9,316 nt of DNA from a virus (Duplodnaviria; Heunggongvirae; Uroviricota; Caudoviricetes), in the IMG/VR virus record IMGVR_UViG_2695420699_000004; one strand, written 5' to 3'. Below the pieces are notes generated by a model. That model was not told the origin of the DNA. It saw nothing but the letters and a program-made list of their open reading frames with translations, and did not search any database. The position numbers and the translations under genes are program-made. Below, piece by piece: positions 2,247-9,316 of this stretch (within the stretch, counting starts at the first letter, position 1; each line of letters opens with the position of its first letter).

Positions 2247-2990
2247 ATGACAGAGACAGAATCAGCGATTCTGGCGCACGCCCGGCGATGTGCGCCAGCG
2301 GAGTCGTGCGGCTTCGTGGTGAGAACACCGGAGGGGGAAAGATATTTTCCCTGCGTGAATATCTCCGGTGAGCCGGAGGCGTATTTCCGGATGTCGCCGG
2401 AGGACTGGCTGCGGGCAGAGATGCAGGGTGAGATTGTGGCGCTGGTCCACAGCCACCCCGGTGGTCTGCCCTGGCTGAGTGAGACCGACCGGCGGCTGCA
2501 GGTGCAGAGTGATTTGCCGTGGTGGCTGGTTTGCCGGGGGGCGATTCACAAGTTCCGCTGTGTGCCACATCTTTCCGGGCGGCGCTTTGAGCACGGGGTG
2601 ACGGACTGTTACACGCTGTTCCGGGATGCTTACCATCTGGCGGGGATTGAGATGCCGGATTTTCATCGCGAGGATGACTGGTGGCGTCACGGTCAGAATC
2701 TCTATCTGGATAATCTGGAGGCCACAGGGCTGTATCAGGTGCCGTTGTCATCAGCACAACCGGGCGATGTGCTGCTGTGCTGTTTTGGTTCATCGGTGCC
2801 GAATCATGCCGCCATTTACTGTGGTGACAGCGAGCTGCTGCACCATATTCCTGAACAACTGAGCAAACGAGAGAGGTACACCGACAAATGGCAGCGACGC
2901 ACACACTCCCTCTGGCGTCACCGGGAATGGCACGCATCTGCCTTTACGGGGATTTGCAACGATTTGGCCGCCGCATCGACCTTCGTGTGA
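2247..2990 (+). CDS. K: Tail assembly protein K, JAB/MPN metalloprotease domain + NlpC/P60 cysteine peptidase domain (247 aa as the long ORF; alternative internal start at 2391 gives 199 aa)
   Basis: Contains a complete JAMM motif H-x-H-x7-S-x2-D (VHSHPGGLPWLSETD, about nt 2449-2490), then an NlpC/P60-like Cys (GVTDCYTLF) and downstream His residues (NHAAIYCG...LLHHIP). 3' end overlaps the I start by 103 nt in another frame. The long ORF has a weak SD; the internal ATG 2391 is preceded by GGAGG (2375-2379). Confidence 0.85.
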   Translation: MTETESAILAHARRCAPAESCGFVVRTPEGERYFPCVNISGEPEAYFRMSPEDWLRAEMQGEIVALVHSHPGGLPWLSETDRRLQVQSDLPWWLVCRGAIHKFRCVPHLSGRRFEHGVTDCYTLFRDAYHLAGIEMPDFHREDDWWRHGQNLYLDNLEATGLYQVPLSSAQPGDVLLCCFGSSVPNHAAIYCGDSELLHHIPEQLSKRERYTDKWQRRTHSLWRHREWHASAFTGICNDLAAASTFV

Positions 2991-3559
2991 AAACGGGGGC
3001 TGAAGCCATCCGCGCACTGGCCACACAGCTCCCGGCGTTTCGTCAGAAACTGAGCGACGGCTGGTATCAGGTACGGATTGCCGGGCGGGACGTCAGCACG
3101 TCCGGGTTAACGGCGCAGTTACATGAGACTCTGCCTGACGGCGCTGTGATTCATATTGTTCCCAGCGTCGCCGGGGCCAAGTCAGGGGGCGTATTCCAGA
3201 TTGTTCTGGGGGCTGCCGCCATTGCCGGATCATTCTTTACTGCCGGAGCCACCCTTGCAGCATGGGGGGCAGCCATTGGGGCCGGTGGTATGACCGGCAT
3301 CCTGTTTTCTCTCGGTGCCAGTATGGTGCTCGGTGGTGTGGCGCAGATGCTGGCACCGAAAGCCAGAACTCCCCGTACACAGACAACGGATAACGGTAAG
3401 CAGAACACCTATTTCTCCTCACTGGATAACATGGTTGCCCAGGGCAATGTTCTGCCTGTTCTGTACGGTGAAATGCGCGTGGGGTCACGTGTGGTTTCTC
3501 AGGAGATCAGCACGGCAGACGAAGGGGATGGTGGTCAGGTTGTGGTGATTGGTCGCTGA
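2888..3559 (+). CDS. I: Tail assembly protein I (223 aa), N-terminal ubiquitin-like domain ending in Gly-Gly, C-terminal Gly-rich hydrophobic region
   Basis: 223-aa ORF starting inside the K 3' end (different frame). N-terminal ~100 aa end in ...VAGAKSGG, immediately followed by a glycine-zipper-like hydrophobic stretch (VFQIVLGAAAIAGSFFTAGATLAAWGAAIGAGGMTGILFSLGASMVLGG). Position between K and J matches lambda gpI. Confidence 0.9.
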   Translation: MAATHTLPLASPGMARICLYGDLQRFGRRIDLRVKTGAEAIRALATQLPAFRQKLSDGWYQVRIAGRDVSTSGLTAQLHETLPDGAVIHIVPSVAGAKSGGVFQIVLGAAAIAGSFFTAGATLAAWGAAIGAGGMTGILFSLGASMVLGGVAQMLAPKARTPRTQTTDNGKQNTYFSSLDNMVAQGNVLPVLYGEMRVGSRVVSQEISTADEGDGGQVVVIGR

Positions 3560-3619: not shown

Positions 3620-6600
3620 ATGGGTAAAGGCAGCAGTAAGGGGCATACCCCGCGCGAAGCGAAGGACAACCTGAAGTCCACGCAGCTGCTGAGTGTGATC
3701 GATGCCATCAGCGAAGGGCCGATTGAAGGTCCGGTGGATGGATTAAAAAGCGTGCTGCTGAACAGTACGCCGGTGCTGGACAGTGAGGGGAATACCAATA
3801 TCTCCGGTGTCACGGTGGTGTTCCGGGCCGGTGAGCAGGAGCAGACACCGCCGGAGGGATTTGAATCCTCCGGCTCCGAGACGGTGCTCGGTACGGAAGT
3901 GAAATATGACACGCCGATCACCCGCACCATCACGTCTGCAAATATCGACCGTCTGCGCTTTACCTTCGGTGTGCAGGCACTGGTGGAAACCACCTCAAAA
4001 GGGGACCGGAATCCGTCGGAAGTCCGCCTGCTGGTTCAGATACAACGTAACGGTGGCTGGGTGACGGAAAAAGACATCACCATTAAGGGCAAAACCACCT
4101 CGCAGTATCTGGCCTCGGTGGTGGTGGATAACCTGCCGCCGCGCCCGTTTAATATCCGGATGCGCAGGATGACGCCGGACAGCACCACAGACCAGCTGCA
4201 GAACAAAACGCTCTGGTCGTCATACACCGAAATCATCGATGTGAAACAGTGCTACCCGAACACGGCACTGGTTGGCGTACAGGTGGACTCAGAGCAGTTC
4301 GGCAGTCAGCAGGTGAGCCGTAATTATCATCTGCGCGGGCGTATTCTGCAGGTGCCGTCGAACTATAACCCGCAGACGCGGCAATACAGCGGTATCTGGG
4401 ACGGAACGTTTAAGCCAGCATACAGCAATAACATGGCCTGGTGTCTGTGGGATATGCTGACCCATCCACGCTACGGCATGGGGAAACGTCTTGGTGCGGC
4501 GGATGTGGACAAATGGGCGCTGTATGTCATCGGCCAGTACTGCGACCAGTCAGTGCCGGACGGCTTTGGCGGCACGGAGCCGCGCATCACCTGTAATGCG
4601 TACCTGACCACACAGCGCAAGGCGTGGGATGTGCTCAGTGATTTCTGCTCGGCGATGCGCTGTATGCCGATATGGAACGGGCAGACGCTGACGTTCGTGC
4701 AGGACCGACCATCAGATAAGGTGTGGACCTATAACCGCAGTAATGTGGTGATGCCGGATGATGGCGCGCCGTTCCGCTACAGCTTTAGCGCCCTGAAAGA
4801 CCGCCATAATGCCGTTGAGGTGAACTGGATTGACCCGAACAACGGCTGGGAGACGGCGACAGAGCTTGTGGAGGATACGCAGGCCATTGCCCGTTACGGT
4901 CGTAACGTCACGAAGATGGATGCTTTTGGCTGTACCAGCCGGGGGCAGGCACACCGCGCCGGGCTGTGGCTGATTAAAACAGAACTGCTGGAAACGCAGA
5001 CCGTGGACTTCTGCGTGGGCGCAGAAGGGCTTCGCCATGTGCCGGGCGATGTCATTGAAATCTGTGATGATGACTATGCCGGTATCAGCACCGGTGGTCG
5101 TGTGCTGGCGGTGAACAGCCAGACCCGGACGCTGACGCTCGACCGTGAAATCACGCTGCCATCCTCCGGTACCACGCTGATAAGCCTGGTTGACGGAAGT
5201 GGCAATCCGGTCAGCGTGGAGGTTCAGTCCGTCACCGACGGCGTGAAGGTAAAAGTGAGCCGTGTTCCTGACGGTGTTGCTGAATACAGCGTATGGGGGC
5301 TGAAGCTGCCGACGCTGCGCCAGCGCCTGTTCCGCTGCGTGAGTATCCGTGAGAATGACGACGGCACGTATGCCATCACCGCTGTGCAGCATGTGCCGGA
5401 GAAAGAGGCCATCGTGGATAACGGGGCGCACTTTGACGGCGACCAGAGCGGCACGGTGAATGGTGTCACGCCGCCAGCAGTGCAGCACCTGACCGCAGAA
5501 GTCACCGCAGACAGCGGGGAATACCAGGTGCTGGCGCGCTGGGACACGCCGAAGGTGGTGAAGGGGGGGAGCTTTATGCTTCGCCTGACCGTGGCAGCGG
5601 ATGACGGCAGTGAGCGGCTGGTCAGCACGGCCCGGACGACGGAAACCACATACCGCTTCAGGCAGCTGGCGTTGGGGCGTTACACGCTGACAGTCCGGGC
5701 GGTAAATGCCCGGGGACAGCAGGGCGATCCGGCGTCGGTATCGTTCCGGATTGCCGCACCGGCAGCGCCGTCACAGATTGAGCTGACGCCGGGCTATTTT
5801 CAGATAACTGCCACGCCGCATCTTGCGGTTTATGATCCGACGGTACAGTTTGAGTTCTGGTTCTCGGAAACGCGGATTACCGATATCAGGCAGGTTGAAA
5901 CCACAGCCCGCTACCTTGGCACGGGGCTGTACTGGATAGCCGCCAGTATCAATATCAAACCGGGCCATGATTATTACTTTTATGTTCGCAGTGTGAACAC
6001 CGTTGGCAAATCGGCATTCGTGGAGGCCGTCGGTCGGGCGAGCGATGATGCGGAAGGTTACCTGGATTTTTTCAAAGGCAAGATAACCGAATCTCATCTC
6101 GGCAAGGAGCTGCTGGAAAAAGTCGATCTGACGGAGGATAACGCCAGCAGACTGGAGGAGTTTTCGAAAGAGTGGAAGGACGCTAACGATAAATGGAATG
6201 CCATGTGGGGCGTCAAAATTGAGCAGACCAAAGACGGCAAACATTATGTCGCGGGTATTGGCCTCAGCATGGAGGACACGGAAGAAGGCAAGCTGAGCCA
6301 GTTTCTGGTTGCCGCTAACCGTATCGCGTTTATTGACCCGGCAAACGGGAATGAAACGCCGATGTTTGTGGCGCAGGGCAATCAGATATTCATGAACGAC
6401 GTGTTCCTGAAGCGCCTGACGGCTCCCACCATTACCAGTGGTGGCAGTCCTCCGGTATTTTCCCTGACATCAGACGGAAAGCTGACCGCTAAAAATGCGG
6501 ATATCAGTGGCAGTGTGAATGCGAACTCCGGGACGCTCAACAACGTCACGGTAAATGAAAACTGTACGATTAAGGGCATGCTGGAGGCGACTCAGGTCAG

Positions 6601-7033
6601 AGGTGACTTCGTTAAAGCTGTATCCAAATCATTTCCGAAACAGGCTGGTACGTGGGGTAACACGGAAACACCAAACGGGACGGTTACAGTCACCATCAGC
6701 GATGATCATAACTTTGACCGTCAAATCATTATTCCGCCCATTATCTTTAACGGAATAGCGTATAGCTATCCGGGAAGTGGTAATAACCCGGGAGGTACAA
6801 GTTACACGGGTTATGGTTTTGAAGTTCGCAAAAACGGTGTATTAATCGCATCCAGAGAAACTAAAGGGGCCATTCCCGGTAGCTACAGTGCGGTTATTGA
6901 TATGCCGAGTGGCAGGGGAAGCGTCACTCTGGAGTTTAAGGTTTTCCATAAAGGCAATCAGTGGGCAGGTAATATCACCGACTGTACGGTGATTGTGACC
7001 AAAAAAGCCGCTTCCGGCATCAGTATTCGTTGA
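3620..7033 (+). CDS. J: Host-specificity / central tail fibre protein J (1137 aa)
   Basis: 1137-aa ORF with SD GGAG 8 nt upstream of ATG 3620. Size, position after I, and fibronectin-III-like beta-rich repeats in the middle (e.g. ...[27 protein letters not shown]...) are characteristic of lambda-type gpJ. The C-terminal ~150 aa are compositionally distinct (see findings). Confidence 0.95.
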
Positions 7034-7054
7034 AATTGTTATAACCCATATAAG

Positions 7055-7080
7055 GGCACCAGAAATGGTGCCTTTTTTAT
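7055..7080 (+). terminator. Putative rho-independent terminator downstream of J
   Basis: GGCACC (7055-7060) - AGAAAT loop - GGTGCC (7067-7072), followed immediately by TTTTTTATT (7073-7081); 22 nt after the J stop. Confidence 0.6.
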
Positions 7081-7102
7081 TGCAGAAAAGCGAGAGGTAA
7101 TT

Positions 7103-7702
7103 ATGCGTAAAGTTTGTGCCGCAATTTTGTCCGCAGCCATTTGTCTGGCCGTATCCGGTGCGCCTGCATGGGCGTCTGAACATCAGTCCACGCTGAGCGC
7201 GGGGTATCTTCATGCCTCGACCAACGTTCCCGGCAGCGATGATCTGAACGGGATTAACGTGAAATACCGTTATGAGTTTACGGACACGCTGGGAATGGTG
7301 ACGTCATTCAGCTATGCAGGAGACAAGAATCGCCAGCTTACCCGTTACAGCGATACCCGCTGGCATGAAGATTCCGTGCGTAACCGCTGGTTCAGCGTGA
7401 TGGCGGGGCCGTCTGTGCGCGTGAATGAATGGTTCAGCGCGTATGCGATGGCGGGTATGGCTTACAGCCGTGTGTCGACTTTCTCCGGGGATTATCTTCG
7501 CGTAACTGACAACAAGGGGAAAACGCACGACGTGCTGACCGGAAGTGATGACGGTCGCCACAGCAACACGTCTCTGGCGTGGGGAGCTGGCGTGCAGTTT
7601 AACCCGACCGAATCCGTGGCCATTGATATTGCTTATGAAGGCTCCGGCAGTGGTGACTGGCGCACTGACGGTTTCATCGTGGGTGTCGGTTATAAGTTCT
7701 GA
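7103..7702 (+). CDS. lom: Lom/Ail-family outer-membrane beta-barrel protein (199 aa), lysogenic-conversion cassette
   Basis: SD GAGAGG (7092-7097) 5 nt before ATG 7103. N-terminal signal peptide ([24 protein letters not shown]|SE), alternating amphipathic beta-strand pattern and C-terminal aromatic ...VGVGYKF typical of 8-stranded OMP barrels of the Ail/Lom/OmpX family. Position between J and stf as in lambda. Confidence 0.9.
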
Positions 7703-7728: not shown

Positions 7729-7756
7729 AGCCCGCCGGTTCAGGCGGGCTTTTTTG
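7729..7756 (+). terminator. Putative rho-independent terminator downstream of lom
   Basis: AGCCCGCC (7729-7736) - GGTTCA loop - GGCGGGCT (7743-7750) followed by TTTTTT (7750-7755); 27 nt after the lom stop. Confidence 0.7.
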
Positions 7757-7766
7757 TGGGGGGAAT

Positions 7767-9316
7767 ATGGCAGTAAAGATTTCAGGTGTACTGAAAGACG
7801 GCACAGGAAAACCGGTAGAGAACTGCACCATTCAACTGAAAGCCAGACGTAACAGCGCCACGGTGGTGGTGAACACGGTGGCCTCAGAAAATCCGGATGA
7901 AGCCGGTCGTTACAGCATGGACGTTGAGTACGGTCAGTACAGCGTTATTCTGTTGGTGGAGGGATTTCCTCCGTCACATGCCGGGACCATCACCGTGTAT
8001 GAAGATTCTCAACCCGGTACGCTGAATGATTTTCTCGGTGCCATGTCGGAGGATGACGTCCGGCCGGAGGCACTGCGCCGTTTTGAACTGATGGTGGAAG
8101 AGGTGGCGCGTCACGCAGAGGAGGCGAAGAAGAATGCCGGAGAGGCAGAGACGTCCGCGAGGAATGCCGGCATATCAGCCAGTCAGGCAGAAAAGAGCGC
8201 TGCAAATGCTGACACTTCAGCAGGGGAGGCATCGGAGTCAGCCCGGCAGGCGGCAGAAAGTGCAGCCTCAGCAAAGCAGTCAGAGGATGCGTCCTCGTCC
8301 TCGGCTTCTGCGGCCGCTCAAAAAGCCAGTGAGTCATCACAAAGTGCAGCAGAAGCTGAATTGTCAAGAAAGACGGCAGAAAGTGCAGCCGGTAATGCAG
8401 CCAGGGATGCAACGACCGCAACAGAAAAAGCCCGGGAGTCAGCAGAAAGCGCACAGTCAGCGGAACAAAGCAGGATAGCGGCGGAAGAAGCCGTAAACCG
8501 AATCCCCACAGTGGTGGGGCCACCCGGGCCAAAGGGAGAACCGGGGCCCGCGGGTCCTCAGGGGCCGAAGGGTGATAAGGGAGAGCGCGGTGACACCGGC
8601 CCTGTCGGGGCAACCGGCGAACGGGGACCGGCAGGTGATGCTGGTCCGGCAGGCCCGCAGGGGCCGAAAGGCGACAGGGGAGAGCGGGGAGAGACCGGTC
8701 TGACGGGAAATGCAGGTCCACAGGGTCCAAAGGGAGATACCGGTGCGGCAGGCCCGAAGAGCGCTGCAAATGCTGACACTTCAGCAGGGGAGGCATCGGA
8801 GTCAGCCCGGCAGGCGGCAGAAAGTGCAGCCGCTGCAAAGCAGTCAGAGGAGGCGTCCTCGTCCTCGGCTTCTGCGGCCGCTCAAAAAGCCAGTGAGTCA
8901 TCACAAAGTGCAGCAGAAGCTGAATTGTCAAGAAAGACGGCAGAAAGTGCAGCCGGTAATGCATCCAGGGATGCAACGACCGCAGCAGAAAAAGCCCGGG
9001 AGTCAGCAGAAAGCGCACAGTCAGCGGAACAAAGCAGGATAGCGGCGGAAGACGCCGTAAACCGAATCCCCACCGTGGTGGGACCTCCCGGGCCAAAGGG
9101 AGAACCGGGGCCCGCGGGTCCTCAGGGGCCGAAGGGAGATAAAGGAGAGCGTGGCGACACCGGTCCTGTCGGGGCAACCGGTGAGCGGGGACCGGCAGGT
9201 GATGCTGGTCCGGCAGGCCCGCAGGGGCCGAAAGGCGACAGGGGAGAGCGGGGAGAGACCGGTCTGACGGGAAATGCAGGTCCACAGGGTCCAAAGGGAG
9301 ATACCGGTGCGGCAGG
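7767..9316 (+). CDS. stf: Side tail fibre protein (3'-partial; at least 516 codons, no stop in window): lambda-Stf-like N-terminal domain + Ala/Ser/Glu-rich helical segment + collagen-like Gly-X-Y repeats
   Basis: Not in the supplied ORF track because it has no stop inside the window. I translated it by hand from ATG 7767 (frame 0) and it is open to 9316. N-terminus MAVKISGVLKDGTGKPVENCTIQLKARRNS... matches my recollection of the lambda Stf N-terminus. Downstream: low-complexity A/S/E/Q-rich sequence, then 27 consecutive G-X-Y triplets (GPPGPKGEPGPAGPQGPKGDKGERGDTGPVGATGERGPAGDAGPAGPQGPKGDRGERGETGLTGNAGPQGPKGDTGAAGPK) at 8517-8759, and again from 9081 to the window end. G-run SD (GGGGGG 7758-7763) upstream. 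Confidence 0.85.
   Translation, partial: MAVKISGVLKDGTGKPVENCTIQLKARRNSATVVVNTVASENPDEAGRYSMDVEYGQYSVILLVEGFPPSHAGTITVYEDSQPGTLNDFLGAMSEDDVRPEALRRFELMVEEVARHAEEAKKNAGEAETSARNAGISASQAEKSAANADTSAGEASESARQAAESAASAKQSEDASSSSASAAAQKASESSQSAAEAELSRKTAESAAGNAARDATTATEKARESAESAQSAEQSRIAAEEAVNRIPTVVGPPGPKGEPGPAGPQGPKGDKGERGDTGPVGATGERGPAGDAGPAGPQGPKGDRGERGETGLTGNAGPQGPKGDTGAAGPKSAANADTSAGEASESARQAAESAAAAKQSEEASSSSASAAAQKASESSQSAAEAELSRKTAESAAGNASRDATTAAEKARESAESAQSAEQSRIAAEDAVNRIPTVVGPPGPKGEPGPAGPQGPKGDKGERGDTGPVGATGERGPAGDAGPAGPQGPKGDRGERGETGLTGNAGPQGPKGDTGAA
8193..8756. repeat. Tandem direct repeat, copy 1 of a 564-bp (188-codon) in-frame module within stf
   Basis: Sequence from 8193 (aagagcgctgcaaatgctgacacttcagcagggg...) recurs from 8757 with the same phase. 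I count about 16 mismatches over about 560 aligned bp by eye (about 97% identity). Confidence 0.9.
8757..9316. repeat. Tandem direct repeat, copy 2 (truncated by window end) of the 564-bp stf module
   Basis: Direct repeat of 8193-8756 at a period of exactly 564 bp; the window ends 4 bp before the copy would be complete, so further copies downstream cannot be excluded. Confidence 0.9.

Follow-up and report, generated by a model that had tools for sequence, protein, structure and literature searches.

The J gene of a lambdoid tail-tip region carries a phage 434-type receptor-binding tip

It has been known since the 1970s, from the lambda h434 hybrids, that the tip of the J protein is the receptor determinant of the phage, and that the phage 434 version of this tip goes with the outer-membrane protein OmpC. 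Lambda J binds LamB; with the J gene of 434, lambda binds OmpC, which is also the receptor of 434 itself, and host specificity is determined by the J C-terminus (PMC3509688, PMC11101478). The engineered lambda gpJ chimeras A8 and 1A2 carry sister tips with different receptor-binding domain (RBD) sequences and discriminate between OmpC alleles (PMC11338833), and the OmpC dependence of phage phi330 has been shown by knockout and complementation (PMC12502783). Here we describe the J gene of IMG/VR virus record IMGVR_UViG_2695420699_000004 (Caudoviricetes), for which a 9316-nt stretch of DNA with an overall GC content of 0.58 was analysed (referred to below as the window). The window corresponds to the tail tip of a lambdoid phage or prophage. 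Over its entire length it is colinear with phage 434 and lambda h434 imm21, at 96.6–96.8% DNA identity, and prophages in most complete Escherichia coli genomes match it.

On the basis of sequence identity, junctions, mosaic distribution, domain family and predicted fold, we interpret positions 6539–7033 of the window as the phage 434 (h434) allele of the J C-terminal RBD, an exchangeable cassette which would direct the phage to OmpC instead of LamB, and we give this interpretation as a whole a probability of about 0.85.

Identity and composition of the J tip

The J gene and the two parts into which it divides are as follows.

3620–7033 (+): J, tip attachment or central tail fibre protein, 1137 aa and intact, defined by the open reading frame (ORF) and its translation, the Pfam domains and colinearity with the 1137-aa J of phage 434
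3620–6538 (+): lambda-like J body, aa 1–973, with the hub domains, two FNIII/Ig domains, the alpha-helical shaft and the central straight fibre; 95–97% DNA and ~97% protein identity to lambda
6539–7033 (+): 434-type RBD, an AT-richer segment comprising aa 974–1137 and the stop codon, recognised by Pfam family PF12421, identity to 434 and a fold match

Translation of 3620–7033 returned the C-terminal peptide quoted in a preliminary description of this DNA, which had been made from the sequence without database searches. Six Pfam matches were found in the same order as in lambda J (FNIII-A_GpJ, Phage-tail_3, Ig_J, Ig_J_second, Phage_Tail_Tip and Ig_GpJ_C), so that the domains run from the hub to a C-terminal immunoglobulin (Ig)-like receptor-binding domain, and J is positioned after H-M-L-K-I, as in a lambdoid gpJ. 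The preliminary description had taken the upstream part of J to be lambda-like and the C-terminus as unlike lambda, with a change at 6540, and the alignment with lambda J bears this out. DNA identity per 100 nt is 87–100% up to 6569, 72% at 6520–6619 and 40–59% beyond ~6600, and BLASTN homology stops at 6589. The divergent block opens with a residue change at aa 974 (nt 6539), which places the proposed start correctly to within a codon. Protein identity falls from ~97% over aa 1–973 to 38.5% over the last 164 residues (aa 974–1137, compared with lambda J aa 974–1132), with indels in the three loops L1, L2 and L4 discussed below, and the tip is therefore not of the lambda class.

The tip instead belongs to the type found in phage 434, with which it shares 153 of 164 residues (93%) without gaps, and protein identity rises to 98.8% with the tips of Shiga toxin (Stx) phages of the Stx1a and Stx2c types (many of them from O157), cdtI, Ayreon and PhiR49_1. 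Tip types are discrete among the phage records: 74 share the 434 type at amino acid identities of at least 92% and the remainder fall below 48%, with the nearest other tip type reaching 47–51% identity at most. Within the 434 type, the window tip is of the other subtype to 434 itself, one common to the Stx1a and Stx2c phages, cdtI and Ayreon, at a synonymous divergence (dS) of 0.34 from 434. An end-to-end alignment of the window with 434 and lambda h434 imm21 places the junction between tip and J body at the same point in all three. Of 5426 complete E. coli genomes, 2114 (39%) carry the 434-type allele, and the named homologues in a database of 5.8 billion proteins are all from E. coli, E. albertii or Shigella. 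Two engineered tips were also considered as possible identities and rejected, as the A8 RBD (taken from the structure sequence) is only ~50% identical to the window tip and the 1A2 sequence (from the Nature 2024 supplement) is clearly of another type.

PF12421 matches J at aa 1001–1136. An AlphaFold model of the tip, for which the 5.8-billion-protein search supplied the alignment, has a mean predicted local distance difference test (pLDDT) score of 81, and the best Foldseek matches of the model are to lambda J (8xck and 8xcj) and to A8 gpJ, free and OmpC-bound (9wca and 9wcb), with a probability of 1.0 and template modelling (TM) scores of 0.62–0.63. As modelled, the tip is a beta-sandwich like the gpJ RBDs of solved structure.

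It was the composition of the 3' end of J that had first drawn attention to this segment, and the spot values given at the time (~55% GC at 5041–5100 and ~42% at 6721–6780) agree with our calculations of 0.55 and 0.417. The tip (6539–7033) has a GC content of 0.467 and a GC content at third codon positions (GC3) of 0.473, compared with 0.577 and 0.694 for the J body (aa 1–973; binomial test of the tip GC3 against the body value, p = 5e-9). The lowest-GC 494-nt stretch anywhere in the window begins at 6611, and the 172 of 8823 sliding windows which are as low in GC as 6540–7033 or lower all begin between 6537 and 6708. The profile across J is not uniform, and falls in two steps at ~5795 (from 0.60 to 0.52) and ~6600 (to 0.45). 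The second step matches the loss of lambda homology. The first (~0.60–0.65 to ~0.52) is found at the boundary between the FNIII domains and the shaft, and since it lies within sequence which is still ~95% identical to lambda, it must be an ancestral feature of both phages, with no connection to the exchange of the tip.

A low GC content is a property of the 434-type tip allele and travels with it: the GC and GC3 values are 0.477 and 0.485 for the phage 434 tip, 0.542 and 0.606 for lambda, and 0.530 and 0.684 for phage 1717, and the A8 tip has a GC content of ~0.465 (an approximate value from a machine-read sequence). The same figures might be taken as a sign that the cassette was recently imported from phages of lower GC content outside Escherichia, as the tip GC3 is well below that of the rest of J, the window as a whole is richer in GC, and the lambda and 1717 tips are less depleted. 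However, this sits poorly with the restriction of the named homologues to E. coli, E. albertii and Shigella, with the presence of the allele in more than a third of complete E. coli genomes, and with the divergence between the two subtypes, which implies a long diversification within the Escherichia pool. A lower-GC donor lineage for the tip was not found in the 5.8-billion-protein database, from which mostly short J fragments were returned, all of Escherichia or Shigella origin, and we regard a recent import as unlikely.

Receptor assignment and predicted contact loops

The preliminary description had expected a receptor other than LamB, and this is supported by the 93% identity between the window tip and the tip of 434 and lambda h434, both of which use OmpC (PMC3509688, PMC11101478), such that the window tip probably binds OmpC as well. 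The literature was also searched for the receptors of the closest relatives, namely mEp332 and the PhiR phages (grown on ECOR13), and nothing relevant was found.

The structures solved for lambda and A8, together with published modelling, allow a mechanism to be proposed in which the tip, an Ig-like beta-sandwich, would trimerise at the end of the central tail fibre, with its bottom loops L1, L2 and L4 docking onto or entering the trimeric porin OmpC rather than LamB. Binding would then cause the three domains to spread, the beta-prism above them to twist and the helical shaft to flip, and the tail tip would open for DNA ejection, as for lambda J with LamB and A8 gpJ with OmpC (PMC11101478); a literature search for a paper on the A8 gpJ–OmpC structures found none. 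The loops were placed by aligning the window tip to the modelled contact loops of phi330, and correspond to inter-strand segments in the tip model.

6632–6673 (+): predicted bottom loop L1, aa 1005–1018, opposite phi330 T918–Y921; exceeds the loop of phi330 and 1717 by 6 aa and that of lambda by 2 aa
6764–6799 (+): predicted bottom hairpin L2, aa 1049–1060, opposite phi330 E953–S962, with the substitutions D1050Y and R1061S at its two ends
6953–6970 (+): predicted bottom loop L4, aa 1112–1117 (GNQWAG), opposite phi330 A1015–P1020

The region of phi330 T918–Y921 has been discussed as an OmpC-contacting loop in phage 434, and in the published modelling the E953–S962 hairpin of phi330 points into the OmpC barrel and A1015–P1020 contacts the OmpC rim (PMC12502783). 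L1, L2 and L4 are of the same length in the window tip as in phage 434, and lambda has a 6-aa deletion at L2. Polymorphisms relative to 434 at L1 are S1004A, Q1008K and A1009V, and W1115 of L4 is replaced by R or G in other 434-type tips. The closest relatives of the window tip (Stx2c, cdtI and Ayreon) differ from it by three bases, two of which are non-synonymous and account for D1050Y and R1061S, and each of these substitutions removes a charge at the base of the L2 hairpin.

Several of these observations weigh against a straightforward transfer of the 434 receptor to the window tip. Eleven of the 164 tip residues differ from 434, and eight of these lie no more than one residue from L1, L2 or L4 (hypergeometric p = 4e-4, where the loop boundaries are somewhat free). 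The combination of D1050Y and R1061S is rare, with an identical tip DNA sequence in only three complete E. coli genomes, NZ_CP090611, NZ_AP029605 and NZ_AP029609. The loops themselves are placed from a monomer model and the AlphaFold3 modelling of others rather than from a solved 434–OmpC complex. Finally, as the related tips A8 and 1A2 differ in the OmpC alleles they accept, the allele range or even the receptor of the window tip could differ from that of 434.

Taken together, these points would suit a 434-type tip whose loop substitutions confine it to a restricted set of OmpC alleles or redirect it to another porin such as OmpF. The loss of two charges at the L2 hairpin, the five of the eleven differences which fall strictly inside the loops (p = 0.04) and the finding that lambda J can reach OmpF by point mutations (PMC11101478) would also be consistent with such a change. 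Against it stand the high identity to 434 with no indels and a dN/dS ratio (non-synonymous to synonymous divergence) of 0.10 relative to 434, which at the sequence level indicates that the tip overall has been shaped by purifying selection. Furthermore, phages with tips apparently lacking just D1050Y and R1061S propagate, like 434, on K-12 strains (Ayreon on K12 and phi458 on MC1061). We therefore think a restricted or altered receptor improbable, and prefer OmpC recognition of the 434 kind. It is also improbable, though a little less so, that the D1050Y and R1061S pair alone might change which OmpC alleles a 434-type tip accepts, or direct it to another porin. If it did, the pair would represent a natural two-residue host-range switch within a common allele. 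It offers a small candidate for studies of OmpC-allele specificity and is only a mildly new detail.

Junctions and mosaic distribution of the tip cassette

The limits of the exchanged segment were determined by segment scoring on a multiple alignment of the window with 434, an Stx2c phage, 2851, an Stx2a phage, cdtI and lambda, and the tip was found to lie between two conserved anchors.

6481–6545 (+): 5' conserved anchor and upstream recombination junction of the tip cassette; 89–97% identical in every phage compared, including 2851
7001–7102 (+): 3' anchor, covering the final 11 codons and stop codon of J plus the J–lom spacer; homology to phages with other tip types resumes here, and it is 90–100% identical among 434-type phages

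By alignment the tip cassette occupies ~6546–7000. At its upstream end, the J sequence which flanks the 5' anchor in 2851 is only 61–65% identical to the window, and lambda aa 964, which is inside this anchor, is the junction of the engineered gpJ chimeras (PMC11338833). At the other end, DNA homology to phage 1717, which has a different tip type (47% amino acid identity), is missing from ~6566 to 7000 and is back at 7001, continuing at 95% through lom and stf.

Tip DNA identity is 90–99.6% across the 434-type phages (99% for cdtI and 90% for 2851) and 51% for lambda. When compared with the Stx2c phage PV98-693, dS was 0.99 in J aa 1–600, 0.15 in aa 601–973 and 0.009 in the tip, and as the tip is nearly unchanged where the N-terminal half of J has reached a dS of about 1, the cassette must move by recombination. 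The receptor-binding module swap proposed in the preliminary description is thus a true cassette exchange and not local divergence. One point should be added: the incoming tip is still a homologue of the lambda tip, of the same family (PF12421) and the same predicted fold, and not an unrelated module. Homologous recombination between co-resident lambdoid prophages, at 6481–6545 and from 7001 onwards, would swap tips in this way.

That the C-terminus diverged in place from a lambda-like ancestor by diversifying selection, without exchange of DNA, would fit a tip homologous to that of lambda in family and fold, and a class of domain known to be a target of positive selection, but it is already contradicted by the mosaic pattern, with a boundary falling within ~50 nt, a shift in synonymous composition at that boundary (GC3 from 0.69 to 0.47), the same tip at a dS of 0.009 in a phage with a highly diverged J N-terminal half and behind unrelated upstream modules in cdtI and 2851, and tip classes at 92% identity or more or below 48% with no intermediates, and we give it almost no credence.

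We note that J has a second exchangeable module immediately upstream of the tip. In 2851, Stx2a_EH2201 and cdtI (L004, L005 and L006) the helical-shaft and straight-fibre segment is 28 aa longer than in the window and 61–69% identical (6081–6480 in the window), and the 434-type tip is retained. The distal third of J is therefore made up of at least two independently swapped cassettes.

The loss of homology to lambda extends beyond J, from 6590 to 7574, and the possibility that the tip and the adjacent lom gene form one linked cassette was considered and rejected, because the same lom allele is found with other tip types (1717 and phi330) and homology to 1717 is back at 7001, inside J. Divergence from lambda reaches 7574 because lambda lom is also unusual.

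The J tip is therefore the 434-type version, which is among the most frequent tip alleles of E. coli prophages, and represents an ordinary, very common and already known module exchange. For annotation purposes, the phage or prophage can be labelled as having a 434-type, probably OmpC-dependent J tip. The same junction now serves in the engineering of lambda particles for DNA delivery. It should also be noted that a reading made without tools picked out this host-range cassette correctly from composition alone.

Neighbouring genes and comparison with known systems

The genes and other features surrounding J in the window are listed below.

Window start: H, 3' part only
1214–1543: M, ORF with a match to lambda M
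1543–2241: L, ORF with a match to lambda L
2247–2990: K, ORF with a match to lambda K
2888–3559: I, ORF with a match to lambda I
7052–7075 (+): terminator-like hairpin and T run after J, from a consensus scan; the phage 434 record has a terminator annotated at this position
7103–7702 (+): lom, Ail/Lom outer-membrane protein, 199 aa (PF06316, E = 1e-121)
7767 to the window end: stf, side tail fibre gene, open at the end of the window, with a match to lambda stf

The Lom protein encoded here has 44% identity with lambda Lom, and homology to lambda returns only in the last ~130 nt of the gene. This lom allele is a common one, with DNA identity of at least 90% in ~157 phage records which include other J tip types, and it is the lambda lom (listed with L001, 7966–8586) which is the outlier. 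A second terminator-like hairpin and T run follows lom at 7729–7750, where the phage 434 record also has an annotated terminator.

The stf gene contains an in-frame tandem duplication of 564 nt, with copies at 8193–8756 and 8757–9316 which have 16 mismatches over 560 nt. The duplicated unit encodes 188 aa, consisting of an Ala/Ser/Glu-rich coiled coil and collagen-like Gly-X-Y repeats, and is present as one copy in the stf of phage 434. A second case of this duplication was not found among the E. coli matches listed for an 80-nt junction probe, which aligned only as two pieces 564 nt apart. Two long antisense ORFs, one of 498 aa opposite M, L and K (1441–2937, –) and the other of 434 aa opposite stf (7990–9294, –), are probably incidental products of composition and of the many repeats in stf; an antisense ORF, orf206b, is annotated within lambda stf as well.

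Related Stx and cdt phages carry cargo genes at the tail-tip region, with sodC between I and J and nleC, nleH-like and cif effector genes beyond the tail fibre genes (Stx2a_EH2201, L005, 837–1364 (–) and 7744–8730; cdtI, L006, 7419–9351). None of these cargo genes is present in the portion of the region covered by the window.

Amongst the known systems, the J protein of phage 434 and of the lambda h434 hybrid (OL657226, OL657227 and OM418627) is closest to the one described here, having the same length of 1137 aa, the same junction and tip type, and a colinear window. It differs in 11 tip residues, mostly near the predicted contact loops, and in belonging to the other subtype of the allele. 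LamB-binding lambda J (PDB 8IYK, 8XCK and 8XCJ) shares ~97% of the protein sequence of the body, the domain order, the PF12421 RBD family and the fold, and presumably also the mechanism by which receptor binding triggers opening. In contrast, RBD identity is just 38.5%, the window has additional residues in L1 (2 aa) and L2 (6 aa) and fewer in L4, the tip GC content is 0.47 rather than 0.54, and a different receptor is expected.

The engineered OmpC-binding lambda gpJ chimeras A8 and 1A2 (PMC11338833) are similar in the principle of the swap, in the junction at lambda aa 964 and in the fold, and A8 gpJ has been solved in complex with OmpC (PDB 9WCA and 9WCB), but both carry different tip alleles from that of the window. 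Finally, phi330 J belongs to the same domain family, is followed by the same lom allele and has modelled contact loops which align to L1, L2 and L4, but differs in the tip, where identity is ~53% across the 184 C-terminal aa that align, and in an L1 shorter by 6 aa.

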